From Raillietiella orientalis (taxonomy: Eukaryota): 64,000 bases of DNA. The stretch spans positions 1-64,000 of the forward strand of contig JAYWIR010000033.1 of assembly GCA_036172245.1 (NCBI GenBank). Direction: 5' to 3'. The position numbers and the translations under genes are program-made. The notes under the pieces are model-generated. The model was not told where the DNA came from and did no database searches. It saw only the letters and a program-made list of their open reading frames with translations. Shown here piece by piece: positions 5,477 to 64,000 of this stretch. The first letter of the stretch is position 1, and each line of letters opens with the position of its first letter.

Positions 5477-5489
5477 GCTGTTTACAATA

Positions 5490-34250: not shown

Positions 34251-34299
34251 GTTTATCGTTTTACGATCTACCGCAGTAGCTGGTTAGCGTTCATGCCTC

Positions 34300-36880: not shown

Positions 36881-36892
36881 AATCTTCGTGGA

Positions 36893-37250: not shown

Positions 37251-37868
37251 ATCTGCAGAGAGATGTTGCTCTCCGCCAGATGTGGGATGGACTCTCGTCG
37301 GCCCTAAACATTCCGGTTGGCGACCCAAAATACATTTTTAGACGCCTCCTGTTGCTAGACGCCATGCAAGCCTCCGCATGTGTAGCAGTGCTATATTGCA
37401 TACGCAGAATTTTGGGGAAGTGGAATGCAACCAGGAGAGGACGAAGTAGTCGGAATGCTATCCACTGGGAAACCGTCTCTTTGTAGAAGCCTCCCCGTTG
37501 GAGCTGACTTAACAAACATTTGCCGGCACTTGTTCGCATCCAATCCGGGATACAGAAGCCTCCCCACGGCTCACTGTGATCCCTTCCCTTACCTTTCCTC
37601 CCAAGAAACAATGTGCCTCCAGCGTTTTTCTTTTCTTGTTTATTTTATTCTATTTTTTTTTGCTTTTTCCCATCCCTTGCGTCAGTAGAGAAACTTATAG
37701 GCTTACAGGTCGGTAAGCATAAGTGTCCGCAGAAAGTTTGGACATGTGAGTTGACCGGAAAAAAAAAACAAACACAAAAACCAAAACATTGACAACAAAT
37801 AATTGTATCATGAAATTTTGCTTCGTAAATATTTTTATAATGAATGCCCCGGCTTACCCTTGTGAAAA
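37251..37868 (+). mobile_element. H-like ORF2 C-terminus and 3' end
   Basis: ALRQMWDGLSSALNIPVGDPKYIFRRLL; GTGATCCCTTCCC; aatgaatgccccggcttacccttgtgaaaa. Confidence 0.82.
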
Positions 37869-38375
37869 TCCACGTTTCGTTGCTCCTCTGGTTTAGTTTG
37901 GCTGCCCACCGCCTTCGTCTCGTATCAGTCATGTCGACTGAAGCACCAGGGGTGCCAACACTATCGCGTAGCACCGGAGGAACTCTGCGGGCAAGTCGTC
38001 CTTCCTTGGAGCTTTACGCCTCTTGAGCCTTTGGATACCCGAGAGGATTTCGACGGTGGTAAAAGCCTCGTCGAGACTTAAATTCTCCTCCTTTCCTATT
38101 ACTGAGGCATCATCCGGAAGCAAGCTCCGGGAGGCGTCTCGCTCCGGGGAGGCCCTGGTGTAGAGGGAGGAATAAAATCTCACGAGGTGTTGTATTCTAG
38201 CCGGGGCCGAGTGCTTCCGGCTCTGGTCGACCAGCAAGCTGGCCGACCTGGATTACCAAACTTTGCGCTCACCCCCGACGCGGTATTCGGCCAGACGACG
38301 GACGTTGGGGTCCTTACGTAATTACGGGCATACTAATACGCCCTTTCGTTGCGGACCCGCTGCCCAGATCCTGCC
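37869..38375 (-). pseudogene. E-like ORF2 linker resuming at the GFG site, deleted to a short C-terminal piece
   Basis: RTPNVRRLAEYR, FYSSLY, KRRKAP, then AKLNQRSNETW. Confidence 0.85.
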
Positions 38376-40205: not shown

Positions 40206-40778
40206 TATCAGGATTTGTCGAAGGGCAACGCAATCCTAGTGGATTGTGTTGCCCTTCGGCCCCTCTGGTTCCGCTTTGCCGCGGCCGTCGGTATCCCCTG
40301 CGGCAATCATAGGGACGCTCTAAAATCCTTTTCGTTGCCGACGCCCTTCGCCCAGCGTCCTCGATAGCAGCCTTGTGCAGCCTTCGTGGGATCGTTGCTG
40401 CATGAGGCACGGCAACGTGAAGACAGGGAGATCGGAATACTATCCAGTGCGCCTCTTAATTCCTGAGAAAGGCGTCGCGATGGCCTTCCCTCGATCTTCA
40501 GATCCAACAAGAGCTTGCCGGCATTCTGAGAAAGATGATGCGGCCTCAGCAGGACCACTGATCCCTTCCCGTATTCTCGCACTCTTTGTTTCTTTTTGTT
40601 TAGTTTTTCCTTATTTCCCCCTTCCCCGGCTGCTTTGGTGGACCGAGCCGGTCTGGGAACCGGTGACTCGGCAGGCACCGTGGTTCTTCGCTTGTGGACG
40701 GAGCATTGCTACACCCATTAAACTTTCCACTATAAAGTTTATTTTTTAATAAAGCACTTGGAGAAATCCGGGTAAAAA
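40206..40778 (+). mobile_element. ORF2 C-terminus and 3' end joined by deletion
   Basis: ILVDCVALRPLW, TGATCCCTTCCC at 40559, AATAAA at 40748 plus degenerate hairpin. Confidence 0.82.
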
Positions 40779-44500: not shown

Positions 44501-44604
44501 ATAATGATGTTAAGTGGGTATGTTGTATGAATGTGATTATCTAATCAATGTGTTTTCAAAAATAGAAAATAAATTCACCCCACCCTTTGTGGGACTTAGT
44601 GAAA
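41550..44604 (+). mobile_element. LINE lineage A: decayed ORF2 and 3' end (second copy)
   Basis: Direct homologue of 1-2857; RGVRQGDSLTP, YADD; AATAAA at 44568 plus CCCCAC-ccttt-GTGGGA. Confidence 0.92.
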
Positions 44605-45923
44605 ATTGCCGAGTCGGTGAAGGGGCGGCTGTCTGAAGCGTGTTTTTGCGCGGTGCGCCGCTGCTTGCTACGGGTTTCGTAGTCGCCGCAGAGGCACCTG
44701 CGTAGGATTGGGACTTTGCCGATTTGGTAAGGTACAGCGGGTTAGAGCTGCAGGTATTCGCCCTGTGGCGATCTTCATGCTCACCTACCTTTCCGACCGA
44801 GGGTCTTCGGAAATGTCGCGGTTCCTGGCTTGGAGAGGTGCTTCCGAGTACGGCAGCGAGGGCTCGCCCTCGCGCCTTTTTTTAATTGGCTTCCTCGCCG
44901 CGATTTCTCCCTTTAGGGGCATTCAGGGCTTGGACGCCTTTTGTATAGCCGCGTATTGCTTAGCTTTATTGCCAAGACTCCGCGGAGACTGTTTTTTCTT
45001 GGGGGCAGCTGCCTTTCGTGCTTTGGTCTCTTGAACGCGACGAACTTGCGCCTTTTCTTTGCAAGTACCGGTCACTTTTTTATTTCGTGCCCGGTTTCTT
45101 TGCAGTAGCGGCATTTCGTGGTAAAACATTCCTTCATTCGGTGTCCCTCCTTGCCGCACTGCTCGCACACGCGAGTATATCCTATAAACCACAGGTGAAC
45201 GACCGTGCCGTTCACCTGCATCTGCTCGGGCACAACACGCCCTTTCGCGACGGTGATCCTCGCGGGAGCTTGTCCAATGTGGACAGAGGGGAAATCCTTT
45301 AGAGGATTTGGCCTCCTCCACAGAGCGTGCACGGTGGCGAACTCCGCCAGAACACTTACGACATCGCGGTCGGAGTTTTACGGCTCGATTTCGCACAATC
45401 GGAGGACAAACGAGTCGTCCATCACGGAAGGCAAGACTTCCTTGCCACCGATGGACAACGCAGTATGGAGTAGGCGCTGCACTAGTGCTGCGTTTTTGCA
45501 CCGGATCTTTGTGTAGTCCATCCTGCTTGCAGGCATGATGGCAAGGAGCTCCTCCTCCCGAACGCCGATCCGGACGAGCTCATCGTTGAGCTCACGCCCG
45601 GTCCTCCCGTAAAGGGGCCCACTGACCTTATAACGGAGGGCGGACATGTAGCAGGATGCCACATAAGCCTGCAACCCCGCATCGCAGGGTCCTGCTCCCT
45701 GGGTGGTGACGGCGGCGTAGCTCCTCACCGAAGGCAAGGAAACCGTCACGGAGGATCATGCGGCCGCTTCCATTCCAATTTAATTGGATTCCACTGCTGA
45801 CTCATCGACATCATTCTCAGAAGTGGCCAGGCTGCACAACGCTGCTTGGTCGACTTCAAAGAAACACCCAAGTGCGAGCGAGAACGCACTCACAAAGATG
45901 CTCGATCGCGGACGCGGAGAGAC
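44605..45923 (-). mobile_element. LINE lineage B: 5' UTR and ORF1 (second copy)
   Basis: CEQCGKEGHRMKEC and CRYCKETGHEIKK knuckles. Confidence 0.9.
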
Positions 45924-46682
45924 GCGAGAACACGTCTGTACTGGGCGAGCGCATGAGATGGAATGCATATCTGGAGTGCGTCTATCGTATCCGTGGGGAA
46001 CATCGAGAAGTTGTTATGTCGCCTACCTACTTCGGCCAGCCGTCGAGGCCGCGGCGCGTAGCGTACGGTTCGCAATCACGGTCGTATCGGCCACCTGACT
46101 CTCATCTGGTGCGACTATATCGACCTGATCGTCGCGAACGTGCACGCATCAACCCGCGAGGACCTGGCGAATAGGTGGGCGAGGAAAGAAATTTTCCTCG
46201 CCCTCCGGCACGACTGGCTGACCAAGAAGGGCGTGCGTAATGTCCATCTGGTTGGAGGCAATTTTAAGGTTCGCCTAAACCAGATGGGAAAAATCACGAG
46301 CGGAAAATGGTCAAAGCGGTGCGCACGGCAGTGCACACCTGTAATTTGTTGGCCAGTAAACCGCGGATAGAGGACAGCATCGATTACGTGTTCCTTGATC
46401 AGCACCCTTGCACTCGTGTGGGCAGGCGCAGTGAGTTACTGTCCGAGTTGTCCGACCATCGCCCGAACGTGCTCCAGGTTCATGCTCGCGACAGGAACTC
46501 CTGCTCGTTAGCGTGGCGTTTGCCAGGACACTGGCTGAAGCTCCTGGAAGCGGCGAAACATCTCCGCACGTTCATAGGGAGCTTCAGGCTGCGCACACTC
46601 CAGGATTGGGACCGCTTCAAACGGTCCGTCCAGGAGCTCTGCTACCAGTTCCCTTTAGCTTGCATACCAGAGGTATTAGAGG
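45924..46682 (+). pseudogene. APE fragment from the ETH motif to the GFG-equivalent site
   Basis: DYVF, SDH, WRLP, FPLACIPEVLEV, the same length as FPLYRLPPGFGV. Confidence 0.85.
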
Positions 46683-48729
46683 TTTCCACCCGGGTATGAC
46701 CGTGGCGTTTATTGAAAAAATAAAACTCCACAAGACGTGGTACGAGGCCTTACTGACGGCCTAACACCGAACCTGCCGGGACGCAGCCCACCTTGACTCT
46801 CCTCGGCAGTGGAGGAAGATGTGTGAGAAAACAAAAAATAAAATAAAAACAAAGAAAAAACAAAGAGAGTTTGAAGGGAGGGGAAGGGATCACATTCCAC
46901 TGGAAGGAGTGTCCAACCTTCCCAGGATTCCCTCGAGGTCCATCAGCATTGAACCCAGCTGGGGCCATCCTGTAGCTCTCCGCATGCAGCAGACCGCATA
47001 CGGGATGACATTCCTCTTGATCTCGTCAAATCGTCCGTCGCGTGCATCGCTCCAGGCCGCCACGATGCCTCGGATGCAGCATGCGTCTCTGGGTTGGCTG
47101 CCCACCGGGAGCCCGAGGGTCGTCCCGAACCGTTCCCATAGGGTTCGGAGGGCTGCACAGTCAACAAGTAGGTATGGGAGCGATTCCCGCTCCCCACACT
47201 TTGCATATTCAGGCCATTACACTACCCGCGTCCAGTGGAAGCGCCGCGCGTTGAAGGGTAAGTCCCAGGGCAACAGTAGCTGCGCCGATTCTTGCCACTT
47301 CAGGGGGAGGAGCCTGGATCCGATGAGAACTGGAAGCCACTTCAGGTCATCCGTCGGGATGCCGAGCACCTCGGCCCATCTCAGAATTCCACGCAAGAGG
47401 GCACTCGGGGTCGTGGCGTCTGCCAGTTCTCCCATGGTCCAACCGCTCCTTTTCTTCTCTCTGCCTGCTATACAGCAGGAGACTTGCCATTTCGGCTTCT
47501 GGCCGCTGGTTAGGGCCCTCCGTGGAGAGGACAGCGTCGAAGCTAATGGAGTGGTCTTGCCCACGTGCTCCTCGCGGGACACTCCAGAGTGTACTGCTGT
47601 GTGCAGCAGGCGTTGGGTACGAATCGCAGGCGGTTCTAGGTTTTTTTCTCTGCTGTTGTTTAAATTCGCCCAGGTTCCAACGGTTTCCTCCAGCCAGGCG
47701 GAGCAGTTCGCGGGGCTGCATACTATTCTACCGTTTTCTCTCACCAGGGCTTCCATGCGTCCGAGAAGGTTGCTTCTTCTTAACTTTCCGCCGCGGCACA
47801 AAAGATACGACGCAAGCCCTTGCGTCCTGGAAAGACGGCTGGCGAGGAGGAGGGACGAAACGCAACAAGGGGTGCTCCACAACTGCGCTGCGATGGCGAG
47901 AAGGCGCACTCGCAGCTGGATCTCCAAGCGCTCCAGTGTCACGAGTTCAAGACCGCCGTCCCGACGCGCAGCACATAAATCTTTCAGAGGCACACGAGGC
48001 CTCCCGCTGCCTTAGAGTGCTAAGCGAACGAGGTCCTTAGACCTCTTCTTCAACTGGGAGGGGACGGGGCAAACAAAAAGCAAGGTGCGGAGGATGAGGT
48101 CCGAGAACGCGTTCAAAACCGCGGCCCGTTACGGCAGAAGAAACTTGCCTTCCAGGAACGGGCCGATTGCCAACTACCCTTCCGGGAGACTACCTGACCA
48201 GGATTCTGCGAGACAGAAGTCCCCCAACAGGACACCCAGGTACTTCAGGCACCTGGCCGTGGGGATCCCCAAGAGGATCCAGTCAGACCGTCTACCAACG
48301 TCGCACCCACCGCTATCACTAATGACTTCGGCTTGTTTACCTGGAGTCCAGTCGCACGGCTTAGCAGATCGAAGAAATCCTCTACTGCGGCTGCCGGAGC
48401 AGACATGTGCAAAATCAGCAGAAGATCGTCGGCGTATGCAGCTACAGCGAGCGTGCCGGGGCATGAGCTGGGCAAGGCAGCCAAAGTCACTCTGTACGCT
48501 CTCAGCACCTACTCAAAGTAGGTGCTAAAAAGCCGAGGACTAAGGCTATCGCATCGCCGTATGCTTCGCCATACCGGCACGCCGTACGGCTATTTGTTTA
48601 CTGGAAGAAACGTTCATTAACGCATTCCGCCAGCAAGAGCGCAGGAAAGAGTGTAAAAACGGTGGAAAGCCCATGCGACCCAGAAGCTCCAAAAGAAGCT
48701 CCTGGTCCACGCAGTCGCTCGCCTTATGC
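46683..48729 (-). mobile_element. LINE lineage Cx: ORF2 from HKAxDCVDQ to 3' end
   Basis: YADDLL, LCAARRDGGL, LKWQESA; terminal motif at 46683-46713. Confidence 0.9.
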
Positions 48730-49882
48730 GCTCGAAGGCGGACGTTTTTTCTCGGTGCTCCTTGTGCCAGGAAGTCTCCCCTAGTGCAAACGTCGTGTGG
48801 TTCGGTGGTCGATCAGGCAGCGATGCCTGACGCGACCACCAGGGATGGCTAGGTGGCGGCGGCAACGTCGTTCCCAGAGGCGATGTAGGCATGGGCATCC
48901 GCCCCTACAGAATCGGTCCCCACTACAGCGCGGGCGTAAAGCGCCGTTGTGTCGGCGCCATCGCCTGCAGTCGCCGCGGAATTGTCGGCCTATGTAGAGG
49001 AGGGGTATAACCCCTCATTGTTCTAGAAGTTAGGCAATCTTCATTCTTTAGAGAGCGCGCGCGCCTTCTCGAAGGGCATGCGCGCTCTCGATGTGAAAGA
49101 GGAGGAGCTCAGCGCTATGACTATCTGCAGCGGGGCTCAGTACGTTGAGGTCATCTGCAAACAAGCAGAGCTGGCCCAACGACTGCTTTTATTCCCTGTG
49201 GTGATGGCGACGCGCCGGCTCCTCCCCATTACAGCAGACCGTAGCATCATGGTCCACCTATTAAACGTGACCGCGCATATGCGCAAAGAACAGGTTCATG
49301 CCGCTTTAGAACAGTACGGAACGGTCCGCACGCAATGAACGAAAGTTAGTCCTTTTGATGACTACATGGGGCTGCAACACGGCCTCACAGCTGCACGCGT
49401 GACCGCTCGGGAGGGCTGCCCTCTTCTCAACAAACTGGTGGTCGATGGCGAAACCGTCGACCGAAGGTATGTGGGGAAGCCGAAATACTGCGACTTGTGC
49501 AATACGTCGGGGCACCTGAAAAAGAGGAGTCCCAACGTGCAGTGCCAAGTATGCGGCACAATGGGTCCCATGAAGGATGTGACCCCAAAAGAATCAGTGC
49601 GGATGGTTTCCAAGAGGAACCTTAAAAAACGCACCCTGCTGGTGCAGAAAAGGCTGGCGGAGAAAGCTGCCGCGAAGGCTGTGCCAGCCGCGCCCAAGAC
49701 CCAGGCCGCACCCGAGACCCCAACGTACAACGCCGAACAAGTCAAGGAAAGCAGCCACAAGCCTAGGTGGCAGCTGGCAACCGCTAAAAAGAGCAAAAAG
49801 GAGAGCAGATTGGAGAACAAACTCGCGTTACGCCAGAAAAAATAGCAGGCAACCGAGCAGATTAAAGCTTGCACTTTTGTCG
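48730..49882 (+). mobile_element. LINE lineage C: 5' end and ORF1, interrupted by G
   Basis: 5' GGCGGACG at 48737; YVGKPKYCDLCNTSGHLKKR. Confidence 0.88.
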
Positions 49883-52584
49883 TTTATTACCCGGTTGCGC
49901 CGGGACGTTTATTAGAATATCAACTGAGAACTGTGTTCCCAGGCAAGGGGAACAGAAAATGGGGAATAGATTTCCCGGAACGCAGTCCGGACACACTAAG
50001 AGTTCGGAACGGGAGGGGGTGGAACAATAAATAAATAAACTGGGTGGGGGGGAGGGGACAGGGGTATACCGTCTAACCGTTCCTATTCTCAGAACCGGTG
50101 GTGAATGCCGCCGATCTCCATCCTCACTTCTGCTCCAAGATGTGGCCACCCGGCAGCCATTTGCAGGTTGCAGGCTGCGGTGTCGGGGACCGATGTTGGG
50201 ACTGCTCGCATCTGCAATACGTGGCCGGCCCTGACAATGGCGCGGACGCAGCAGATGATGGCGACGACCGCTCCAAGAGAAAGATCGCCACGCGTGTAGA
50301 AGCGGCGCATCCAATCCAGTGCGGTGTGTCCAGGGTGCAGGAGCGCTGAAGACAGCCGCCGCCACAGCTCCTGGAGGGCACCGCACTCAAACACCAAATG
50401 CGGAAGCGATTCCACGGCTACGCATTTGGAACAGTTCGGGGAAGCATCTCCCATGAAAATCAGGTGCGCCCGCTGATTGCAGTACAAACCCCAATGCACC
50501 AGCAGAAAAGCGTCCTGTTTCCACCCAAGGGGGAAGAGAGTCGCGTCCAAACACGCAGAAGAGACCACAGGTTCATCGGTGGGCACCCCGAGGAGCTCAC
50601 TCCACCGGACAAGCCCCTGTGCAAGAATGCGAGGTGTAACAGCGTCTGCCACTTCGCAAGTCCGCCAGCCGCCCAGCAGGCGGGTTTCGCTTGAGATTTC
50701 GCAAGCAATCTCCCACCGCGCAAGGCAGGTCACTGTCGTCTCGCACCATCAGTGCACACAGTGCTTCGGCGAGTAACGTAGCGGCTAGGCGTTTCCACTG
50801 GTCCTGGTCTTCCAGCACCTCCCCCACTGGACAGTATGGGGAAAGTTCCACGCAACGGAGTTCCAAACGGGACACATCCTGTTGCGCTGCCCAGGACGAT
50901 AAGGCTTCCTGCCTCCAGGCGTTGAAGTTCGTCGGCCGGAAGGAGATCCACTCATGCTTTCCCAGAAGAGTGGCGAGCTGCATCAAAGGGAAGCCGAACC
51001 CTCTCTGGGCGCGCTCCGTGCGCATATGCAACGAACGAAGTCCGTCGCCACCCGTGCTGCGCCGCAGCAGCAGCCGCGCTGGAGCACACCAGGGAGTAGT
51101 CCAGAGCTGCGCACAAAGTGCCAGCATGCGGAACTGCACAAGCAGTCCGATCCGCTCCAGCGTCAGGATGCCTAATCCTGCATCCCGCCGAGGAGCCGCC
51201 AAGTCCTTCAGGCGTATCCTGGACCTCGCCAGTCCCCACAGGGCGTTACGCAACAGGCGTTGCGCCCGGCGCTTAGCCGAGTAGGGAGGGGGACAAACAA
51301 AAAAGAGGGGACGGAGGAGGGGGGCAACGAAAATGTTCCACACGAAGGCCCGTTCCGACAGGAGAAACCTGCCTCCTTGGAACGGGCCCAGAGCAGTCTC
51401 GGCCTTGTGAAGGCAGTCCGACCACGCTTATGCAGGACATAAGGCGCCCAAGGGAACGCCGAGGTACTTCAAGCACCTGTTCGTGGGGATCCTCAGGCGG
51501 ATCCAGTCGGACTGCCCCTCCCACGTAGAGCCAACCGGTACAACGGTTGACTTCGTCCTGTTTACGCTCAGGCCCGCTCCCCGACGAATGAGCTCGAAGA
51601 AGTCCTCAAGGTGGACATGGGCAGCAGCAGGAGAAGGTCGTCAGCATAGGCGGCCACGGCCGGTGTTCCCGGGCAGGAGCTCGGCAGGTTGGCCAGCGTC
51701 AGCCTGTACGCCCTCAGCATCAACTCAAAGAAGATGCTGAAGAGCAGGGGGCTTAAGCTGTCTCCCTGCCTGATATCCCGCCGTATGGGAACACCGTATA
51801 CGTGACGCCCGCTGAAAGAGATACAGCATAACGCGTGGCGCCAGCAGGAGCGCAAGTAGGCTATGAGGTGCGTCGGGAGGCCTAGGCGTCCCAGAAGCTC
51901 CAGAAGGAGGTCCTGGTTTACGCTGTCGAACGCTTTGCAGAGATCGACGGCGACCGCTAAGGCTCCCGGTGTTCCATCGTGCCTTGAACACCGCCGCTTT
52001 CCTTTGGCAGCGGCGATTTCGGCTGCCTGGCTCTGCTGCGCCACGCGCTGCTGCAACTCGAACCATGTTCGCGCGAAGAAGAGATTCGCGTCCATGGACC
52101 GCCCCGGAACAGTATACGTCTGCTCCGGACTTACCAAGGAATCTGCGATTCTCCCCAGGCGCGCGACCCATAGCCTGGAGAACAACTTGACGTCCGAATT
52201 CACCAATGTGATCGGACGCCAGTTGCTGAGGTGGCGCAGATCACAGCCTTTCGGCAGGAGCCGCACCTTTGCTGAGCGGAAAGAAGCGGAAACATCTCCC
52301 GTCTCACGCATCAGCGAGGAAAGGCTTAGCACCAGGGGGACGAGCTCCGCCTCGAAGCACTGAAAGAACTCCGCGGGCAGGCCATTCTCCCCAGGCGCCT
52401 CATGCCTCTTCAGGCCCGCTATGGCACAAGATACTTTTTCCGGCGTGAAGGGCCAATCCAGTCTGGCGCGTTCCTCCTCGTCGATAGCAGGGTTGCCCCT
52501 CGGAAGAAGCAGCTCGGAGAGACTGCGTTCCGTGGGCTCCTCCGCGTACAACGAGGAGTAGTAGCGCTTGACAGCGCGGTACAC
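49883..52584 (-). mobile_element. LINE lineage G, 3' half (linker, RT, C-terminus, 3' end)
   Basis: VYRAVKRYYSSLY, WRPITLVNSD, DLCKAFD, RQGDSLSP, YADD, CSKCVAVESLPHLVFEC. Confidence 0.95.
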
Positions 52585-52672
52585 GGCGGACGCAATTGTT
52601 GCGCGCTCCTTGAATGGGGAGTTTTTATTTTCTGGTGTTTCGTGTGTGTTTCGCGGCCGTTGACAGGCAGAA

Positions 52673-54035
52673 ATGCCTGTTAACGCCGCAGTTTCAGGTG
52701 AGGGAGGCGGGAAGACCGCGTCTCCCAAGCCAAAGGAGGTGGGATCACGCCCCACCACTTCTTCTGAACCCGCCACTACGGCGAGGGCCTGGAGCGCGGT
52801 GGCAGCGGGGGAAACGCCCGATGTCGCCGCCGAAATCCAATCCTACATCCAGGAGGGCTACAATCCGGCCCTCCTGTACAAGGTAGGCAATTTATATTTC
52901 CCGTTAAGGGCGAGAAAGTTCGGCAATGCCATCAAAAAGATGGGCATTGCCGACCATGAAATTCTTTGCCTCTCTATACGGAGCGGAGGGCAGTTGGCGG
53001 AGCTCATCTGCAAGGATGCAGCTCTCACCCACAAGATGCTCTGCACGTTCGTACAATTTGAGGGCAGGAATTTACTATCACACACGGTGGACCACTCCAT
53101 TGTGGTCCACCTAACAGGGACAACAGTGCGGATGGATGAGAACGCCATCCGCGCTGAACTGGAAAAATGTGCAAGCGTTTTCGCGATTTGGAGAAAGCCC
53201 AACACCTTCGGAGTGAGCGGTGCATTTAGTGGGCGAGTAGGCGCGCGCGTGACGTTTCGAGAAAGCGTACAGCTTCCCCACAAGCTCCAAATTGGCGACC
53301 AGTTGGTCCACATTTGGTTTGTGGGGAAACCTAAATTCTGTGGAAACTGTAAGTCGTTCGGGCATTTGAAAAAGCGGTGCCCGGACGCGGTTTGCCCAAC
53401 GTGCGGCGCGAAGGGCCACACCAAAGTGATGTGCCCGATGAACGTCGCGCCACGTCCAACAATCAAAGCGTGCAGCGTGGCCATCAAACGCGTGCCGGCG
53501 ATCGATACTCGCTCCGCTGACGGATCGATGCGACGTGACGTCACGTCAGCTGTTCAAGCCGCCGCCGCGCGAACGCCGACGCCGCGACGCCTGCGTGAGC
53601 AGCGACGACCGGGACTTCAACAAGGCGGCGGAAGAGTTGGCAGCCATGCTCCAGCAGCCTCCCAAGGCCCAGAAGAAGGCCTTGAGGTGTCCGGCTGAGG
53701 CGAAAGGACCGGAGACTTCCGAGTCCGAAGCCGAAGCCGGCAAGGCTCCGGCTGTCGCTCTCCCGAAGCGCAAAGCGGGCCGCAAGGTAGGCAACCCGCG
53801 GCGCTCCGCACATCCACCGGCGGAGGAGGAAATGCGGTCGGACCACGACGACGGGGAGGCGATGTCCGCGAGGTCTCGCGACTCCTCGCCGGAGACGTCG
53901 CTGGCCAAGCAGGAGCCTCCAACCACCACCACAACCACCGACGGACCGCCTCCTTGAGAGCAACAGCCCGTCGCAATGGATACACAACTCCCGCCTGCTA
54001 AACAGCAGGCGGAGGACGGTAAGCAAGCACAATAA
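52673..54035 (+). pseudogene. D ORF1, gag-like with two CCHC knuckles (one frameshift, one premature stop)
   Basis: CGNCKSFGHLKKRC, CPTCGAKGHTKVMC; frame change near 53530; TGA at 53955; likely true stop TAA at 54033. Confidence 0.88.
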
Positions 54036-54916
54036 ACACACCAACGCGTGGACTCTCCTCCTGCCGGCGACTGCGCGTAATCTGTTGGAACGTCAACGGG
54101 TTGCGCGACGACGGCAAGAGGAGTGAAGTGGCCGCCAGCCTGCGGGACTTCGACCTGGCGCTTCTGCAGGAGACGCACGTTCTCCACGCAGGGGAGGCCC
54201 AGGAAATCGAACGGATCGCAGGCGGGCGGCTCGTATACCAAAACGGGAGAGACCACACCCGCGGTGTGGCTTTCATGCTGAAGCCAGCCGTCGTTAATGC
54301 GTTGCGCGACGTGCACTTCGACGGGGAAGGACAAATCGGGCAGCTTGGTGCCAAGTGGTCCGACGCGATCGACCTCGTCGTGACCAACGTGTACGCGCCC
54401 GGCACGAGCCACAGGCGCGGGGAACGCACTGCGTTCTTCGAAGGCCTGCGGCGAGATTGGCTGTCCGAAGCAGACATGCGAAAGGCGCACCTCATTGCCG
54501 GGGACTTTAACGTCCGCCTGCTGGCAGGTGCGCCCGACATTCGCGCACAGCTGGTCAACGAGATGTGCGCTGCCAGGCACGCGCGCAACTTGTTGGCCGG
54601 TGACGCCGGGACGGAGACGAGGATCGACCACATGTTCCTCGACAACCACCTGTGTTCGCGGGTGGGAAATCGAGGGGCAGTGCCATCCGAACTTTCCGAC
54701 CATCCCCGGCTGGCGCTAGAAATACACCCGCGCGGTAGAGGTCCACCCTCCACAGCGTGGAGTTTGCCAGGGGACTGGTTGCGCCTCGAAAAAACAGCGC
54801 AACATCTTCGCTCGTTACTGCAAGGCTTCCATCTGCAGACGCTCGCGGACTGATACGACTTGAAGAGCTCAGTCCGCGAGTTCCGCGACCAGTTTCCCCT
54901 GTACCGTCTCCCTCCA

Positions 54917-54926
54917 GGTTTCGGCG
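54917..54926 (+). repeat. Candidate target-site duplication of E (partner at 60578-60587)
   Basis: GGTTTCGGCG on both flanks of E. Confidence 0.75.
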
Positions 54927-54957
54927 TTGCCACCCGGGTACGCCCGGGGCGTTTATT
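54927..54957 (-). terminator. Element 3' terminus: AATAAA followed by GC hairpin (best-preserved example)
   Basis: Reverse complement reads AATAAACGCCCCGGGCGTACCCGGGTGGCAA; 6-bp stem; function inferred. Confidence 0.6.
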
Positions 54958-55131
54958 GATAAACTTTACATGCGTGGTACAAGGCCCCACCACGGCCGTA
55001 AACACAGGACCTGTCGGGACACCGGGACGCAGCCCGGCGTGGCACTCCCCGACAGAGAAGGGGGATGGGGATGAGACAAAAAGTAAAATAAAAAGAAACA
55101 AACAAAAAGAAGTTGGAGGGCAGGGAAGGGA

Positions 55132-58100
55132 TCACTGGTCGCTGTGGGGAGGGCCCATCCGTCGAACGAAGCCCTCGAGGTCAGCCTGCATATTCCCCAG
55201 TTGGGGCCATCCGGCAGCTCTTCGCAAGAAGCGTTTGGCATACGGGATGACATCCCTCGCCTGTGGACCCACTCCTTCGTTGTTGGCGTCGCTCCATGCC
55301 CCCACGATGCCACGGACGCAGCACAAGGCTGCGATGGCTGCGGCTGGCTGCAGTGCGTCCTTCACGAAGAGGGGCCGAAGAACGTCTCTGGGGGTGCTGC
55401 CTGTAGGGAGACCGAGGGTCGTCCCGAACCGTTCCCAAAGGGGTCGGAGGGCAGCACAATCCACAATAAGGTGGGGAAGCGACTCCCGCTCCCCGCACCT
55501 GGCACACGCAGGATCCACAGCTCCCCTCGTCCAGTGGAAGCGGCGCGCGTTGCAGGGTAGACCCCAGTGCAACAAAAGCAACGCCGACTCTTGCCACTTG
55601 AGGGGCAGGATCCTGGATTCCTTCATCACCGGGGGCCCCTTCAGCTCATCCCTGGGGATGGCGAGCAGCTCGCCCCATCTTAATAATCCTCGCGGCTGGA
55701 CGCTCGGGGTCGAGGCGTCGGCCAGTTCTCCTGTTGTCCAGCCGCTGATCAACTTCTCCCGTCCCTCGATGCAGCAGGAGACTTGCCACCTTGGCGTCCG
55801 GGTAATGTGAAGTGCCCTCCTTAGGAAGGGTAGCGCCGTAGCTAGGCAGGTCGTCTCTGCCCACGTGCATCTTGCTGAACTCTCCAAGAGATTCCGCAGC
55901 GTGCAGCGGGCGTAGGGGCTGCATCGGAGACGATTCCACGTTTCGTGGCTTCTCTGGTTGACTACTGCCCACGTTCCAATATTCTCCTCCAGCCAGGCGG
56001 GGGAGTTGGCGGGGCAGCAAACCATCCAGCTGTTCTCCTTGGCCAATGTTGCCATGCGCCCGAGCAGTGGGCCGCATCTTCGCATCTTCCGGCCACGGCT
56101 CAGAAGAAAAGACGCGAGTCCATCGCACCGGGACACACGGCTGGCCAGGAGGCGGGCCGGAGTGCACCAAGGGGTGCTCCACATCTTCGCTGCGATGGCG
56201 AGGGTTCGCCACCGCAGCTGCTTTTCCACGCGCTCCAGCGTCAGGAGGCCAAGACCGCCGTCCCGACACGGAGCGCACAAGTCCTTCAGTGGGACTCGGG
56301 GCCTCCCCTTGCCCCAAAGGGCGATACGGAGGAGGTCCTTCGTCCTCTTCTTGGATTCCACGGTGGGGGGGCAAACAAAAAGCAAGGGGCGGAGGATGGG
56401 GCCGCGAAGGCGTTCCAAACCGCGGCCCGTTCCGGCAAGTGAAACTTGCCTTCCAGGAACGGGCCGATCGCCGTCTCGACTTTTTGGAGGCAGCTGGACC
56501 ACGCTTCCGCAGGGGAGTAGTCCCCCAACGGCACACCAAGGTACTTGAAGCACCTCGCCGTGGGGATCCCCAGACGGACTCAGTCCTGCTGCCCTGCCCA
56601 CGCCGCACCTATTGGCACAACCGACGACTTCGCCCTGTTAACCTGCAGTCCGGTCCCGCGGCTGAGCAGATCGAAGAAGTCTCCGACCGCCTTTGCCGGG
56701 GTGGACATTGGCAACAAAAGCAGAAGATCGTCGGCGTACGCTGCTACGGCGGGCGTGCCGGGGCACGAGCTCGGCAATGGGGCCAAAGTCACCCTGTACG
56801 CTCTAAGCACCAACTCAAAGTAGGTGCTGAAGAGCAGGGGGCTGAGGCTATCTCCCTGCCTTATGCCCCGCCGCACCGGCACGCCATACACCTTTTGACC
56901 GCTGAAAGAGACGGTAATTATCGCATTCCGCCAGCAAGAGCGCAGGTAGGAAATCAGGGAGGGTGGAAAGCCCATGCGACACAGGAGCTCCAAGAGAAGT
57001 TCCTGGTCTACACAGTCGAACGCCTTGTGGAGATCGACTGCGAGCGCTAGGGCCCCCTTCCCCGCCCGGGGGTCCCTTCCCAGCCCGGCTGGCGGCCTTA
57101 ATGTGGGGTTGCCGACTTTCCCTATCCCTTTCTTCTCTCTTCTCTGCAGGTGCACCCACGTGCTTGCGAAGAAGAGGTTGGCATCCATACTTCGCCCGGG
57201 AACAGCATAAGTCTGCTCCGGGCTAATTACGGATTCTGCCACCTGCCCCAGACGCGAAACCCATAGTTCTGCTATCAACTTGGCGTCCGTATTCACGATC
57301 GTGATCGGACGCCAGTTCTTTAAATCCCTGAGGTCTCCTCCTTTCGGCAGGAGCCTCACTCTGGCTGACCGAAACGAGGCGGGAACATCGCCTTCGTCTC
57401 GGATCAGCCTGATCAACTTAAGCAGCAGGGGTGCCAGCTCTTCCGCGAAGCTCTGAAAGAACTCCGCGGGCAAGGCGTCTTCCCCTGGAGCTTTACGCCT
57501 CTTGAGCCTTTTGATACCGGCGAGAATTTCGCCGGTGGTAAAAGGCTCGTCGAGGCTTTCCATCTCCTCCTCCCCTATTGCCGGGGCGCCATCCGGAAGC
57601 AAGCGCCGAGAGGCGTTTCGATCCGGGGGCTCCCTGGCGTAAAGGGAGGAATAGAAACTCCGCACGAGATGCCGTACCGCCGCCGGGGACGAACATTCCC
57701 GGCCCTGGTCGTCCAGCAAGCTGGCCGACCCGGATTGCCAGGCTTGGCGTTCGGCCCCGGCGCGGTACTCGGCCAGGCGACGGACATTAGGGGTTCTCTC
57801 GTACCTACGAGCCTGTAAATAGGCCCGATGGTTGCGAGCACCCTCGCCGAATCCGGGGGGCAGGCGATCCAAGGGGAACTGCTCACAGAACTCGCGGACC
57901 GATTCCTTAAAAAGGTCCCAGTCCTGGAGATTCCGGAGCGTGACACCTCTCAGGTATTCGCGAAGGTATTCCTTGGCACCTGAGAGTCGCGTCCAGTCCC
58001 CCGGCAGACGCCAATCCCTGGATGGCGGTCCCTTGTCACGAGGCCGCATCTCGAAATTTAACCGGGAATGGTCCGACAACGTCGACGCAACCCTCCCCCG

Positions 58101-58730
58101 TTTGCCGACCCGTGAACACAGGTCAGCGTCGAGGAAGACGTGTTCGATGCTGCGGACCATTCCCCTCTCACCCGCGAACAAGTTGCGCGCACGCATGGCG
58201 GCGCACAACTCGTTCATCGCGTTCTCTTGTGTTTCTGGCTCACCTGTTAGCAGACGGAGATTGAAATCTCCCGCTATCAGGTGAGCCTTCCGCACGTTCG
58301 TGTCCGCCAGCCAGTCGCGCTTCAGGGAATCCAGCAGCCTGGTATGGTCGCTGTATCCCTGTTTACCGCTGGGGGCGTACACATTCGTGACGATCAATTC
58401 GATCGAGTCGGACCAGCTGAGAATCAGCTGACCGACCCGACCGTCGTCATCGAAGCGCACGCCCTTCACGGCCGCGTCGATGGCCGGCTTCACGAAGAAC
58501 GCGACCCCGCAGGTGTTGCGGAGGCCGCACCGCCAATACAGCCGACCCCCTGCGATCGTCTCGATCTCCTGGGCGTCTGCCGCGGTGATCACGTGGATCT
58601 CCTGCAGCAGGGCCAGGTCGAGCTCACGCAGGGTGTCGGCCGTATCTCGCCTGTTACCGTCGTCGCGCAGTCCGTTGACGTTCCAACAGGCGGCGCGAAT
58701 CCGACGGCGACTGGCGAGCCCAGGTGTTAT
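55132..58730 (-). pseudogene. E ORF2: APE endonuclease and reverse transcriptase (about 1200 codons; one stop at 56580, one frameshift near 56400)
   Basis: CWNVNGL, LQEIH, NVYAP, AGDFN, SDH, KAPGED, WRPI, DLHKAFD, RQGDSLSP, YADD, KYLG, CARCGERESLPHLIVDC. Confidence 0.95.
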
Positions 58731-60481
58731 TCCTGGGAAGATGGCGATGCGGCGTCCGCCACCTGCTGGGGCGGGACGCTAGGCGGAGGAGGAGGGTCAG
58801 GCGCTGCGTGCACCTGGTCCCCCTCCTCCATGGGTAACGGCGCGTCGAGGGGGTCACCCTTGAGTGGGGTCGCGCCTACCTGTTGGCCCTCCTCCATGGG
58901 GGCGGGCTGTTCAGGCTCGGCGACTGCAGGGAGGACTTCGCCCCCCTGCTCACCCTCCTCCATGGGGCTCGCCGGCTCGACGGCTTCCGAGCGTGGGAGT
59001 TCCCCCTCCGGGACTCCCACGCCACCGCTACCTTCCTGCTTCTCCTCCTCGCTGGTGGAGGGGAGGCGCCTCCTGGGTTTCTGGGACTTGCGTCCCGACT
59101 TCCTGGGGGGTGCCTCCGAGGAGGAGGATGCACTTCCGGCCCCCAGGTCCGACGCACCTGTGGGGGCCTTTTTCGCGGGAGCCGGCCTTCGCACGGCCTT
59201 GCGTGAGGGGTTCTCACGCTCCGCCAGCGTGGCCGCGAGCTCCTCCGCCGCCTTTGCGAACGCGGCGTCCGCAGTGTCGACCGGCGCGTCGCGCGGCTCA
59301 CCCTCTGTGTAAACAGAGGGTTCGTCGTCGCGAACCTCGGGCGCGGCGGAAACGGCGAGGGAAGGCTCGTCGCCCCGGGTGGCAATCTCGGGAACGGCTA
59401 TGCGCTCCAGTGCTACCGTACACTCCCGCATGGTCTTAGAGCGCGGCCCAGGTTTTTTCGCCTTGCCGGCTGTCTTTTTTACCGCTTTTGCGGGTTCCGC
59501 GGGGGGCACCTTTTTCTCCTTCCTGGCCTTGACCAGCTGCCAGCCGTCTTGGACTCCCGCGTCTTCGGAGGGTTTTTCTTCCGACGCCTGTGTGGGAGGA
59601 ACAGGGGCTAGCGGCTGCTGCCGGGCAGTATCTCTTTTTGGTCTTTCGACCAGTTTACTGCGTTTTGCCTGTGCTTTTTTTGCAGCAGGCGGCACCGGAG
59701 TGGGGCGTTTAGGGCATACGCGGCGTACGTGGCCCTTCTCCCCGCATAAGTGGCACACAATGTTCGGGCACCGCTTGCGCAAGTGTCCTACTGCATTGCA
59801 GTAGCCACAAAAGCGGGGTTTCCCCACGTACCAGAGGTCTTCGACTTCGCCATTGACCTCTAGTTTGTGGGGAAGCCCACTCTCGTTCACCGTCACGCGC
59901 GCGGCGGCCTGCCCTCCGAAAAGGCTATCGTAGCCATCGAAGATTGTGGCCTTTGGCCGAAGCGCGTGAACATCCCCGTACTTTCTTAACTGATCACCAA
60001 CCGCAGACCGCGTCATGCGACTGGTGATCCCTGTCAGATGGACCACTACGGAGCGGTCCATCGTGACTGGTAGGATCTTGCGTCCGTCCACGTTCAGCGG
60101 GGTGGTTATCAAGCTTTGCGCCAAGGTGATGTCCTTGCAGACAACCTCAACGCGCTGACCCCCGCTTAGCACGGATAGACCGTCAAGGTCCTTTTCTAAC
60201 ACGTTGGCGTTCTGCAGCGCTTTCGAAAAAGCGCGTGCAGTTCGCCCGTCAAAGAGATTGCCTACCTGGTAAACCAAGCTGGGCTTGTACCCAGCTGCCC
60301 GGTAGGCCGCCATCTCGGCCATCGTTTCCGCGCTCGGCGCGGCCACCATGGCGCTCCAGCTCCTCGCCTTGAGCGGCGAGGGCGATTCCGGGGCGGACGC
60401 CCCTGATTCTGTAGGCTGTGGGGGTGGGCAAGCCTCCCCCACACCTACCTCCATCGTGGGGTCCTCAGGCATCGCTGCCAT
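58727..60481 (-). CDS. E ORF1: gag-like nucleic-acid-binding protein with two CCHC knuckles and an acidic/Pro-rich tail
   Basis: Uninterrupted frame; CGYCNAVGHLRKRC and CHLCGEKGHVRRVC; ATG at 60481 or 60472. Confidence 0.92.
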   Translation of the reverse strand: MAAMPEDPTMEVGVGEACPPPQPTESGASAPESPSPLKARSWSAMVAAPSAETMAEMAAYRAAGYKPSLVYQVGNLFDGRTARAFSKALQNANVLEKDLDGLSVLSGGQRVEVVCKDITLAQSLITTPLNVDGRKILPVTMDRSVVVHLTGITSRMTRSAVGDQLRKYGDVHALRPKATIFDGYDSLFGGQAAARVTVNESGLPHKLEVNGEVEDLWYVGKPRFCGYCNAVGHLRKRCPNIVCHLCGEKGHVRRVCPKRPTPVPPAAKKAQAKRSKLVERPKRDTARQQPLAPVPPTQASEEKPSEDAGVQDGWQLVKARKEKKVPPAEPAKAVKKTAGKAKKPGPRSKTMRECTVALERIAVPEIATRGDEPSLAVSAAPEVRDDEPSVYTEGEPRDAPVDTADAAFAKAAEELAATLAERENPSRKAVRRPAPAKKAPTGASDLGAGSASSSSEAPPRKSGRKSQKPRRRLPSTSEEEKQEGSGGVGVPEGELPRSEAVEPASPMEEGEQGGEVLPAVAEPEQPAPMEEGQQVGATPLKGDPLDAPLPMEEGDQVHAAPDPPPPPSVPPQQVADAASPSSQE

Positions 60482-60573
60482 CGGACACCAACGATGTTCC
60501 ACACTAAACAACACAACAAAAAACCGCTTCCTGTCGACTCACTCGGGAGCGAAGGAAACACACGTCCACTCGC

Positions 60574-63552
60574 CAAGGGTTTCGGCGGAGGGCTGAGGAA
60601 CGACCGGGCATACCACCACGCCCGTCTTTACTCTAGGACTCCCGACGATCGACGCCTGGCGGAGTATAAAGCTGGGGCTGAGCGACAGACCTGGCATTCC
60701 GGGTCGCCCAGCCTGCTGGACGCCCAAGGCCAAGCTCCGGCGAGAATAAACCGCATCCTGCGGGACTATTACTCCTCCTTGTACGCGCGTGGAACAACGG
60801 AGCGCGCCGTGGCGCAGCGCTTGCTGCCGCAAGGCGCCCCCGCGCTGCAGGAGGAGCAGGCACATGAACTCACGGAGCCTTTCTCGATGGCGGAGACTGT
60901 CTCCGCCATCGGAAAGCACCGAAAGAGAAAAGCACCAGGGGAAGACGGTCTGCCAGCGAAGTTCTACCAAGGCTTCGTGGCGGAGCTGGCCCCCCTGGTG
61001 CATCGGCTATGCATGCTGATCCGAGAACAAGGGGACGTCCCAAAATCGTTCCGGTCAGCTAGAGTACGTCTCCTGCCGAAAGGAGGAGACAATCGCAACG
61101 TAGGCAACTGGCGTCCCATCACAGTAGTGAATGCGGATGCGAAGTTGCTTGCCAAGCTTTGCGCTGAGCGACTGAAACGGGTGGCGGAATCCGTGGTGAG
61201 TCCGGAGCAGACATACGCTGTTCCCGGACGAAGCATGGAGGCCAACCTGTTCCTTGCCAGTACATGGTGGCAGTTGCAACAAAGCGAAGACCAGGGAAAT
61301 CAAGAGAATCCTGGATTCTCCTCTGACCAGGGAGGGGACGCCCTTCATGGAAGAGCCGCGCCCGGTGCCCTTGCGGTCGCAGTCGATCTGCGTAAAGCGT
61401 TCGATTGCGTCGACCAGGAACTGCTTCTGGAGCTCCTGGAACGCTTGGGATTCCCGGCCGTCTTCCGGGCTTACCTGCGCTCCTGCTGGCGCTTCGCTCT
61501 AATCAACATCTCTTTTAGCGGCCGGCACGTTTTCGGCGTGCCGGTTTGGCGTGGCATAAGGCAGGGTGACAGTCTGAGCCCCTTGCTCTTCAGCATCTAC
61601 TTGGAGCTGGTGCTGAGGGCATACAGGGAGACTCTGGCAACCCTGCCAAGCTCGTGTGCCGGCACGCCTGCCGTGTCGGCCTACGCCGACGACCTTCTGC
61701 TCCTGCTCCCCGGGTCCACCCCGGCGTCGGCGCTCGAAGATTTCTTTGAGTTGCTGCGCCGCGGGACGGGCCTCGAGGTGAACAGAGAGAAATGTTCCAT
61801 CGTTACAACATCACCACAACTATTCAACCATGCGGCGTGGGCCGGACGGCCGGACTGGATCCGCTTGGGGATCCCCACGGGCAGGTGCTTGAAGTACATT
61901 GGCGTTCCGTTGGGGGACTTCTGCGTTGCAGAAGCCTGGTCCGACCGTCTCCAAAAGGTGGAGTTGGCGATCGGCCCGTTCCGGAACAGCAAGTTTTACT
62001 TGCAGGAGCGGGCCGCGGTGTGGAACGCGTTCGCGGCCCCCCTCCTTCGCCCCTTACTTTTTGTTTGCCCCGCCCCTCCCATCATACAGAGACGGACCAA
62101 AGCCCTCTTGAGGACTGCCCTTTGGGGCACAGCGAGGTCGCGAGTCCGATTGAAAGACTTGTGCGCTCCACGCAGGTATGGTGGCTTGGGCCTCCTTACG
62201 TTGGAGCGCATCCAACTTCAAACAAGAATTCGAAAGTTAGCCCTTGCGGCTAGCTTATGGATGACGCCATTGTGCGATCCGGCACGGCTCCTCTCCAGAA
62301 GAGCGACCGGCTGCGAAGGATTGTCCTCGATCCTCGTGGCCTACCAGCGCAGCCTCTCCAACTGTGGCTTGGATTTGCGCCAGATGGTCGCCCTGATGAG
62401 GGAGAATACCTGGATCTCCTGCATCCCCGCGAACTGCACTGCCTGGCTTCAGGAGTCAGCTTCCGCGTGGGCTAAGATCAACGGAACGAGCGAGGCGGAA
62501 TACAACTGCCTACGACGAGGACCGTACGCTCGACAGCCGCTGCAGGATATTATCAACACGCCCCGGAAGTTTCTGTGGGCTTCTTTCAGCCCCCTTGCCC
62601 CGTTCTGTCCTCCCTGAAAAACAGTAGGAGCAGCAACGAGCTGGCATCGTGGGAAGTGTCCTGCCTCATCCGAGGCAGGAAAAAACCTTTAATGGCGTGG
62701 ACGACTCGTGAGCTCACTAACGCTGCCACTCCGAGCGTCCCGCCTCACGGACTTGCGCGCTGGGGAGAGCTGCTCGCAATACCTCCGGAGGAGGTGAAGT
62801 GGCCCCCAGCGTGTTGGGATTGCGCCACACTCCCGTTGAAGTGGCAGGAGACGGCGTTGCTATTTCTGCACTGGGGACTGTTAAGCAGAGCACGCCTGTC
62901 TCACTGGACACTGGGAAATGTGGATGCCCGTTGTGTCGAGTGCGGAGAAAGAGAAACCTTCCCGCATCTCACCCTCGAGTGTGTCGCTCTGGATGGACTC
63001 TGGATTCGAATCTCCCCAATCCTCCATCTTCCAGTAGGCGACCCTAAGGAAATTTACCGTCGCCTCTTTCTGCGTGACGGCCTGCGCCCCGCCGCGTCTC
63101 CTGCAGTCCTCTGCTGCGTGCGCGGCATTGTGCAAAGGTGGCACGCCAGAAGAAGAGGCCCAAGATGCAGGGACGCCATCCACTGGACGACGATCTCTTT
63201 AGAGACGGCGACAAGGTGGCGTCTACCTTTCACAATAAAAACAGAACTTGACTGCATCCTGAACAGGATGCGGAGGACCGACCCAGGCGCTCAGTGATCC
63301 CTTCCCGGCCCCCCCCCTCTCCCCATACAACTGTTTCCCTCCCCGTTATCTCTCTTTTTGTTTGTTTTTGTACTAGTTTTCCCTTCCTATGCACCTCGGG
63401 AATGGACCTAACCGGTCTATGCACCGGCAACAGACACGTCAACCAAGGTGGGAAAACCAAGTGTTTCCCACAATTAATTTTTGAAAGACTTTATTATGTA
63501 ATTTTTGTAAAAAATTAGAATAATAAATGCCCCGGCATATCCGGGTGGCAAA
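60574..63552 (+). mobile_element. LINE lineage D, 3' half (linker, RT, C-terminus, 3' end)
   Basis: Resumes GFGGGLRNDRAY; RQGDSLSP, YADD; one frameshift near 62600; stop at 63297; AATAAA at 63522 plus CCCGG-catat-CCGGG. Confidence 0.95.
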
Positions 63553-64000
63553 CTTCGGCTGCAGCCGATCATTCCTGGCCAGCGTCATCGAGCAGACAAG
63601 CCGCTACAGACTGCCAAACCTGGCGCTCGTCCCTTGCCTTATACTCCGCCAGACGCCGGACGTCCGGGCATCGTGAAAAGGTATGCGCCTGCAGATACGA
63701 TCTGCTGTTCGCGACACCCTTCCCCAAGCCGCGGGGAAGCAGGTGCAAGGGGAACCGGCAGCAGAACTCGCGGACCGATCTTTTCAGATCGTCCCAGTCC
63801 TCGAGTTCACAGATGGCGAAGCCCCGGAGGTGTTGGCGGAGATGCTCCGCCGCCTCCGATTTGCAAAGCCAGTCGGCCGGCAACCTCCAGACATTCATAG
63901 GAGGCCCTTTGCCAGGCTGGAGGAGCTCGAACTCCAGTCTAGGAAGATCCGAAATCGCGGACAGCAGATGCCCTCTCCAACCTACTCGTGAGAGCAGGTG
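63553..64000 (-). mobile_element. LINE lineage G, end of 5' half (APE C-terminal part and linker); continues beyond the window
   Basis: WRLPADW, FPLHLLPRGLG, LLDDAGQE*SAAAEV. Confidence 0.9.

Follow-up and report, generated by a model that had tools for sequence, protein, structure and literature searches.

The first 64,000 nucleotides of contig JAYWIR010000033.1 of Raillietiella orientalis (assembly GCA_036172245.1; this whole stretch is hereafter the window) form a stack of long interspersed nuclear element (LINE) insertions, in which at least four sister lineages (A–D) each occupy their own nucleotide site within another member of the set. One of these insertions, element E of lineage A (54927–60577, minus strand), lies antisense inside element H of lineage C, and is a real, ordinary target-primed reverse transcription (TPRT) insertion of a site-specific L1/Tx1-like LINE. 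A preliminary description of this DNA had placed a full-length minus-strand element at 54900–60600, which is right within about 25 bp, and had proposed that its target is inherited through read-through RNA complementary to the host element. The reading that we favour, and to which we give about an even chance, is that nicking would be directed by a protein, and that the RNA template would end at the element's own terminus, as defined by an AATAAA motif.

The insertion of E, its orientation, and its target-site duplication are observed directly. E spans 5,651 bp, as delimited by tblastn and blastn maps, the duplication, and the homology breaks. It separates a 5′ part of H with open reading frame 1 (ORF1) and the apurinic/apyrimidinic endonuclease (APE) domain up to the insertion site, termed site A (52612–54926, plus strand; 5′ end approximate), from a 3′ part with the reverse transcriptase (RT), the C-terminal domain, and a 3′ untranslated region (UTR) carrying the same terminal module as E (60588–63552, plus strand). 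A perfect 10-bp duplication, GGTTTCGGCG, brackets the element as is typical of LINEs (left copy at 54917–54926, right copy at 60578–60587, both plus strand). The ORF2 of H is broken by E between ..PPGFG and GGLRNDRAY; once E and one duplicate are removed, the frame of H runs on unbroken (..PPGFG-GGLRNDRAY), and the joined stretch aligns gap-free with its counterparts in E and five other elements. Because the duplication is exact and the host unbroken, E represents an ordinary antisense target-primed insertion in the APE–RT linker of H. As had been stated earlier, the TPRT primer is the host's sense strand: it corresponds to the 3′ end of the left copy, and the first cDNA strand continues the plus strand of H. 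The reported lack of poly(A) likewise holds, with E ending in ..CCCGGGCGTACCCGGGTGGCAA and host sequence following directly. The observation that the flanks of E agree over 10 bp and diverge immediately before them (cct cca versus gcc aag) is also true but trivial, since it describes an ordinary target-site duplication, and the upstream difference at the right copy arises because E's own 5′ end lies there.

The gene content of E is that of an APE-type LINE. Its 96-nt 5′ UTR (60482–60577, minus strand) carries the terminal motif ..GGCGAGTGGACGTGTGTTTCC, which is common to E and the other full 5′ ends (Y, Y2, and X40a), and this shared, defined 5′ motif in full-length copies suggests that the elements have their own transcription start. 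ORF1 (58727–60481, minus strand; ATG at 60481) encodes a CCHC zinc knuckle (Pfam zf-CCHC, 5e-05) to which H shows a weaker match, in line with a nucleic-acid-binding ORF1 product. ORF2 (55132–58592, minus strand) encodes the APE, the RT (Pfam RVT_1, 4e-22), and a C-terminal domain, and Exo_endo_phos is followed by RVT_1 in both E and H, i.e., an N-terminal APE and then the RT. A zinc-bearing C-terminus is represented by a zf-RVT match at the end of the H ORF2 (1.9e-05, under the Pfam cut-off of 27.5 bits). The 205-nt 3′ UTR (54927–55131, minus strand) begins with a conserved word, TGATCCCTTCCC, at the ORF2 stop (55123–55134), and ends in a module (54927–54957, minus strand) composed of AATAAA, a CCCGGG-CGTA-CCCGGG inverted repeat, and a TGGCAA terminus, conserved in 12 aligned ends. 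The global fold stability of the 3′ UTR with its flank is ordinary (z = -0.57).

ORF2 of E includes an in-frame stop at 56580–56582 and a frameshift near 56397. In an independent DNA run (X1), which consists of short contigs and holds part of the window (0.38 share of words), an extra G behind 56397 is found in contigs worth 31.7 of 45.2 depth. Most X1 contigs thus indicate relatives without that frameshift, and intact relatives of E probably exist. Of the runs X1–X3, only X1 contributed contigs; none of them joins across E, and of the 6 loose ends considered out of 89 none falls at either junction, a result without bearing on transcripts or empty sites. E is a somewhat damaged yet recent insertion of lineage A. 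The closest solved structures are human L1 ORF2p (E-value 5e-48) and the L1 endonuclease, and the R1Bm and TRAS1 endonucleases were absent from the PDB matches at the thresholds used. The nearest database proteins are nameless or "hypothetical" and at most 32% identical, except for a 71%-identical fragment, P0040. This is a 619-aa RT fragment from a Joint Genome Institute (JGI) metagenome contig of 2,870 bp, alignable with E over 381 residues; it begins near site C (see below), is uninterrupted at site B, and is the sole close relative found. Scans for relatives yielded seven loci in metagenome_contigs (22–61% identity over short parts, none of E's family) and none in viral_contigs, while the four exact matches to the 3′ module pattern in genome_contigs were not otherwise similar to the window.

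Recurrent antisense insertion at fixed sites

Using E as a ruler, we set the lineage and site positions across the window. Lineage A (E, E2, X46892, E3, and the 5′ part of X40) is associated with site A in the APE–RT linker, lineage B (Y, Y2, and probably the 3′ part of X40) with site B in the RT motif ..AVD^L.. (GCAGTCGA^TCT), lineage C (H and H2) with site C, ~55 codons past site A, and lineage D (G and G2) with site D, directly after ORF1. Across sites A–D the same nucleotide was reused two to four times in gap-free or near gap-free host alignments: site A by E, E2, and X46892 (the last placed by flank length alone), plus the 5′ junction of X40a, site B three times, and sites C and D twice each. 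One candidate, host R as interrupted at site A, was dropped, R being continuous there. Further lineages with sites of their own are likely, for instance X37577 (at a site in the ORF2 C-terminal region), W, and Z.

These insertions are stacked in two nests, in both of which new copies were inserted into existing ones. The right-hand nest (45934–64000) is five-layered and reads, from the outermost host inward, Host0(+) > X46892(-) > Y(+) > G(-) > H(+) > E(-). Its members besides E and H are the 3′ part of X46892 (lineage A, 72–73% identical to E), running from site B to its terminus (46683–48728, minus strand); the 5′ UTR and ORF1 of Y up to site D (lineage B; 48740–49882, plus strand), which sits at site B of X46892 and hosts G; and G of lineage D, whose 3′ part (49883–52599, minus strand) is separated from the part upstream of site C (63553–64000, minus strand, running past the window edge) by the antisense insertion of H at site C. 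No exact duplication of H in G was found as a shared word of ≥7 nt, and a 7/13 resemblance considered for this role was judged unconvincing. The second nest (about 5500–18245) reads E3(+) > Y2(-) > G2(+) > H2(-) > E2(+). Here H2 (lineage C, about 91% identical to H; 7772–13197, minus strand) is interrupted at its site A by E2 (lineage A, 74% identical to E; 10421–11988, plus strand), followed by the 3′ part of G2 (lineage D; 13198–15808, plus strand), Y2 (lineage B; 15818–16983, minus strand), and the A-like E3 (16995–18245, plus strand).

The order of lineages is identical in both nests, i.e., A in C in D in B in A, with each layer antisense to the one surrounding it. Between nests, H/H2 and G/G2 are about 90–93% identical, E/E2 74%, and Y/Y2 76%. 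Layers diverging so unequally indicate that the two nests are not one duplicated block, as an inner layer cannot predate the block that carries it, although the composite of G with H may have been copied as one unit. E2 in H2 is a second, independent insertion of lineage A into lineage C. Lineage A is also found in A-like and other hosts, namely L, Host0, and an old low-GC element.

We evaluated orientation through 12 3′ flanks compared by blastx. Ten could be placed, nine of them in antisense orientation within a host ORF that could be recognised; for the flank of X36922, the match was on the sense strand and 87–269 nt away from the junction. The two further flanks had no blastx placement, and one of them, that of E3, resembles by eye the end of a degenerate APE, again antisense. 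All 5′ junctions that were read are antisense.

The lineages are distinct in site, as the preliminary description had noted, but they are not the close relatives that it took them for. In the 3′ third of ORF2, nucleotide identity is 59–74% within lineage A, 53–59% between A and C, 48–53% between A and D, and about 50% between C and D, hence 48–59% between lineages; for APE, amino-acid identity between lineages is 47–54%. The argument from near-identical elements with different sites therefore falls, and with about half of APE residues differing there is ample room for protein-encoded specificity.

Several other features of the window surround these nests. A 4.5-kb composite occurs twice (5–4902 and 41821–46654) as one continuous alignment at 82.5–88.6% identity, and includes a distant RT element Z (+), an ORF1-bearing element W (-), and the APE-bearing P/Host0 (+); Z and W look like extra lineages with antisense sites of their own. 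E2 and H2 are 5′-truncated, with host sequence lost at their 5′ junctions (10418–10426 and 13197–13198), including 113 bp of G2 at that of H2; such losses are typical of truncated TPRT events or later deletions. A 49-nt palindrome (86%) at 5477–5525, on the border of a B-like ORF1 fragment (5124–5495) and a unique G2 5′ region, suggests a local rearrangement. Finally, the region 18300–37500 has a lower GC content (39–48% versus about 60%) and consists mostly of older, degraded members of the same superfamily, represented by ORF2 C-terminal, ORF1, and APE fragments at 25–50% identity; no cellular gene was recognised in it.

A shared 3′ module and precise junctions

The 3′ junctions follow a common pattern. 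In 12 of 12 cases the host sequence ends in a purine (8 G, 4 A), after which comes a run of T that is the complement of the element's terminal A. The junction signature proposed earlier, (G/A)T then TT, thus captures the purine but is otherwise inexact, the T run reflecting between one and five A. All 12 ends carry 1–5 terminal A rather than a poly(A) tail; in E2, the final element base reads T. Termini are uniform within lineage C (..CAAA) and within lineage D (..TAAA), i.e., the 3′ junctions are precise and poly(A)-free.

All lineages share a 31-nt terminal module, which comprises AATAAA, 1–2 bases, CCCGG, a 4–6-nt loop, CCGGG, TG, and 1–5 A (for instance at 54927–54957, 63522–63552, 7772–7802, and 49883–49913). 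In the CCCGG..CCGGG inverted repeat, 88% of the 60 cells scored over 12 ends are paired, and none shows a compensatory change. The hairpin named in the preliminary description is hence borne out as a conserved inverted repeat, while as a structure it lacks covariation support. AATAAA, which the preliminary description does not mention, starts 31 nt before the terminus in seven of nine 3′ ends and 30 nt before it in E2, and G2 has AATCAA at this position. The motif is retained in lineages whose 3′ UTRs have otherwise diverged, with the terminus at ..CA/A, and the copy at the 3′ end of E is the only one in its 5,651-nt sense strand. If AAUAAA is the organism's poly(A) signal, this layout would be that of a cleavage/polyadenylation site. 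Judged from DNA only, it suggests that transcripts normally end at the element terminus, as we infer, and that reverse transcription would start within the first few A. Because of the AATAAA position, such an end would count against obligatory read-through, by a test that the preliminary description had set for itself.

The 12-mer TGATCCCTTCCC (the ORF2 stop plus 9 nt) has seven exact copies, in elements of different lineages (8020–8031, 11761–11772, 37577–37588, 40559–40570, 46881–46892, 55123–55134, and 63295–63306), each followed by a pyrimidine-rich tract, and appears from this distribution to be a second conserved module of the 3′ UTR. An Rfam scan of the window identified no family at threshold, including no ribozyme of the hepatitis delta virus (HDV)-like type known from R2.

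How the target site may be chosen

In the reading that we favour, the site would be chosen mainly by the element-encoded APE, possibly together with another DNA-binding part that reads a conserved block lying tens of bases away from the nick, and each lineage (A, B, C, D, and others) would have its own diverged version of this site reader, a molecule whose role we infer. The nicked host 3′ end would prime cDNA synthesis at the terminal ..GGCAA of E, and a second nick 10 bp upstream would produce the target duplication. Template RNA would normally stop where the element itself ends, at a point fixed by the AATAAA that lies 31 nt before it, and the adjacent CCCGG..CCGGG repeat would position the reverse transcriptase such that only 1–5 A are copied. 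There may be read-through transcripts that pair with the flanking host sequence, and these may be of help, but the observed facts would not require them.

We next consider the flanks themselves. We rejected the idea of a guide within the 3′ UTR: a 3′ UTR and its cognate flank have at most 5–7 nt of continuous sequence in common, no more than non-cognate pairs do. Flanks are also not more conserved next to the junction than further away in the two comparisons available, with identities in successive segments of 18/20, 16/20, and 55/60 for E/H versus E2/H2, and of 17/20, 19/20, and 53/60 for H/G versus H2/G2. G and G2 are about 93% alike, and their hosts are identical at 10 of 17 of the first flank bases and at 18 of 20 for bases 21–40. 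Accordingly, pairing next to the junction cannot be strict, and the site D hosts contain a conserved block 18–40 nt from the nick, which could be read either by a protein cutting at a set distance or by distal RNA pairing. Site C has a D-specific local word that is not the same in other host lineages. The tetramer TGCA was seen within -13..-6 of the nick at four of seven distinct sites, a post hoc observation whose nominal p = 3e-5 is inflated (host-side junctions 63553, 7771, 49882, 15809, 40779, and 18246; the duplication around E starts right after TCCA). It may mark the second-strand cut.

Several observations weigh against protein-directed nicking with a self-terminating template. The specificity of APE is assumed by analogy, and the universal antisense orientation is left without explanation by this model. 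Hosts of the same lineage can differ near the nick (the 10/17 above), a variation hard to square with a nuclease that reads sequence strictly. The 11-nt word (GCAGTCGA^TCT) that R, which is hit at site B, has there recurs unchanged in the unhit E, H, and H2, so that the local word alone fails to explain host choice; in both nests, B sits inside A-like hosts. The AATAAA argument assumes that AAUAAA serves as poly(A) signal here, and the flanks just downstream of the terminus are not U/GU-rich, as a result of which the poly(A) site could be leaky. Lastly, one host flank is foreign to its recipient, as would be left by read-through templating, albeit in a single case.

This single case concerns 29 host-side bases at the 3′ end of X46892 (46654–46682, plus strand), which do not match the host's own lineage as judged against paralogue P (4902–4930). 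Host0 (41821–46654) and P (5–4902), in which site A is empty, form a single 4.5-kb alignment (82.5%). They are identical at 93 of 100 positions up to ..CAGTTCCCT, and then at only 13 of 29 next to X46892 (Fisher p = 7e-8). This drop in identity coincides with the edge of a block that every lineage has conserved (..CAGTTCCC), and 29 nt is the distance from this block to site A in other hosts. The 29-mer is AT-rich and matches the other site-A flanks at 10–15 of 29 positions, while these share 15–27 of 29 with each other, except for P/R (11). Crossover within the conserved block, recombination, or filler DNA would explain this flank equally well. An earlier interpretation of the odd decamer of Host0 as "same site, different sequence" was dropped, because comparison with P shows the final 29 nt to be foreign to Host0. 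Flank bases matching a donor's host instead of the recipient had been proposed as a check of the target-memory idea, and 46654–46682, where the bases depart from the recipient, is the one junction with a signature of this kind that stands. The other apparent instance, X37577 at 37869–37906, dissolved: 25 of its 38 nt match the C-terminal region of the E ORF2 at 55935–55959 (92%), which points to an internal deletion of about 1.4 kb in the host (L) rather than to a foreign flank. The match between 37869–37906 and 55935–55959 also defines an additional insertion site.

The alternative that survives best, which we hold to be possible yet clearly less probable than protein-directed nicking with a self-terminating template, is an assisted targeting as described for R1Bm and R2, in which a protein would make a specific nick and read-through RNA antisense to the host would anneal to the nicked sense strand, yielding an exact, poly(A)-free junction. 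It would account for the precise junctions with their fixed, short A run and no poly(A), and could draw on a poly(A) site that may be weak given the downstream flanks, as well as on the 29-nt flank of X46892, which begins right after the ..CAGTTCCC block and has the length of the distance from block to site A. For R2Ol, efficiency rose from 12% to 96% with a longer 28S flank (PMC6530143). However, every lineage conserves AATAAA at a canonical spacing from its terminus, the terminus of E shows no microhomology to the primer end, the flanks of the D-lineage copies agree at only 10 of 17 bases, and the single fossil of a carried flank is unlike the known site-A flanks (10–15/29).

A transcription-coupled component, which could be added to either model, is doubtful. 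Here, the displaced sense strand of transcribed hosts would be open to nicking and priming, which would account both for the antisense rule and for a bias toward whichever lineage was active last. The antisense placement of the insertions (nine of ten placed 3′ flanks and all 5′ junctions read) is indirect evidence in its favour, as is the same layer order in two independently built nests, but fixed nucleotide sites would still require a sequence reader. The orientation statistic is moreover weak (about 0.008 at best), as there are at most seven lineages, which perhaps go back to one common antisense ancestor.

About as improbable, in our view, is RNA-guided heritable targeting of the guild as a whole, in which at least four (probably six or seven) lineages would form a closed chain, with flank RNA as the memory and the 29-nt flank as its fossil. 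The strong form of this idea, in which read-through antisense host RNA is the target memory and the site is inherited via the flank by an element whose endonuclease has no dedicated specificity, seems to us unlikely to the same degree or slightly more so. It shares all the evidence of assisted targeting, and adds the four-layer host order built twice and the occurrence of the site B word in both hit and unhit lineages, by which more than a short DNA word seems to matter. Yet it provides no mechanism for two fixed nicks 10 bp apart without a specific nuclease, nor does it predict the antisense orientation, as the flank of a sense insertion could be used just as well. Its premise of close relatives fails (APE 47–54%), insertions of lineage A occur in A-like and other hosts as well (L, Host0, and the old low-GC element), and both AATAAA and the 10/17 flank identity in lineage D speak against it. 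This strong form is neither supported nor excluded; it fails to explain the two fixed nicks and the antisense rule. The supports cited for it in the preliminary description do not discriminate between targeting models. Finally, an assembly error or recombination product in place of an insertion is highly improbable: such repeats assemble poorly, at least one block is duplicated at 82.5% identity, and there are deletions at junctions, but a perfect 10-bp duplication lies exactly at both homology breaks, excising the insert restores an unbroken host frame, the element is complete and has the conserved 5′ motif and 3′ module, and 29 of the region's 30 bins are represented among DNA contigs of the independent run.

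Relation to known site-specific LINEs

The elements of the window can be compared with three known systems. For R1Bm and R2Ol, a read-through 3′ flank anneals to the target and aids accurate or efficient initiation (PMC7265360, PMC6530143), while the nick itself is made by a specific nuclease and the RNA flank improves only accuracy or efficiency (PMC7265360, PMC6530143, PMC1919474). The weak form of the read-through hypothesis, i.e., pairing of read-through RNA with the target, is thus an already known mechanism. The window elements resemble R1Bm and R2 in site-specific insertion, precise 3′ junctions, the lack of a long poly(A), and a 3′ UTR element read by the RT. They differ in that R1Bm and R2 are described as nicking with the R1Bm APE and with an R2 restriction-like endonuclease with DNA-binding motifs, respectively, in that the R1/R2 target is an rRNA gene whereas here it is another retrotransposon, and in that the window elements carry a terminal AATAAA, a defined 5′ motif, and an L1-like sequence.

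Members of the Tx1 clade are described at fixed positions in other transposons, with families differing in position and orientation (PMC4494074), and the endonuclease is reported to mainly decide the target both in this clade (PMC4494074) and in R1Bm (PMC1919474). Tx1L in Tx1D piggyBac, Tx1-Mar in Mariner-N4_AMi, and others in long terminal repeat (LTR) elements or Harbinger share with the window elements an APE with an RT and a likeness in the zinc-knuckle ORF1. The label L1/Tx1-like, as used here, reflects this apparent likeness in sequence and targeting rather than an RT phylogeny. The targets described for the Tx1 clade are DNA transposons, LTR elements, small RNA genes, and microsatellites, whereas in the window they are coding sequences of sister LINE lineages, always antisense and in closed chains.

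Zepp and ZeppL LINEs, in turn, insert into existing copies and thereby form GC-rich nested clusters (PMC8226300, PMC3446292). They are likewise L1-type, target existing copies, and build nested clusters, but the Zepp arrays are those of one family and mostly of 5′-truncated 3′ ends (PMC8226300). The window instead contains several diverged lineages inserted antisense at fixed internal sites, with E and H about full length, and truncated arrays of a single family were not found in it. No description of antisense mutual targeting of LINE lineages in a fixed order was found in the literature searched, a search with most subscription journals outside its coverage. Mutual antisense targeting at fixed coding positions, the repeated layer order, and the universal antisense orientation appear to be undescribed.

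Site-specific LINEs currently attract attention as programmable insertion tools, which gives weight to the question of how a target is kept or changed. This locus offers a natural comparison, in which sister lineages with one 3′ module use different, exact sites in independent events within 64 kb. The strict antisense rule and the repeated layer order go beyond what current models account for. If proteins choose the site, the set offers several related nucleases with distinct specificities, while if flank RNA does contribute, retargeting would need only a change of flank. Were target memory through read-through RNA to be true, it would represent RNA-guided, heritable target choice in a eukaryotic LINE.

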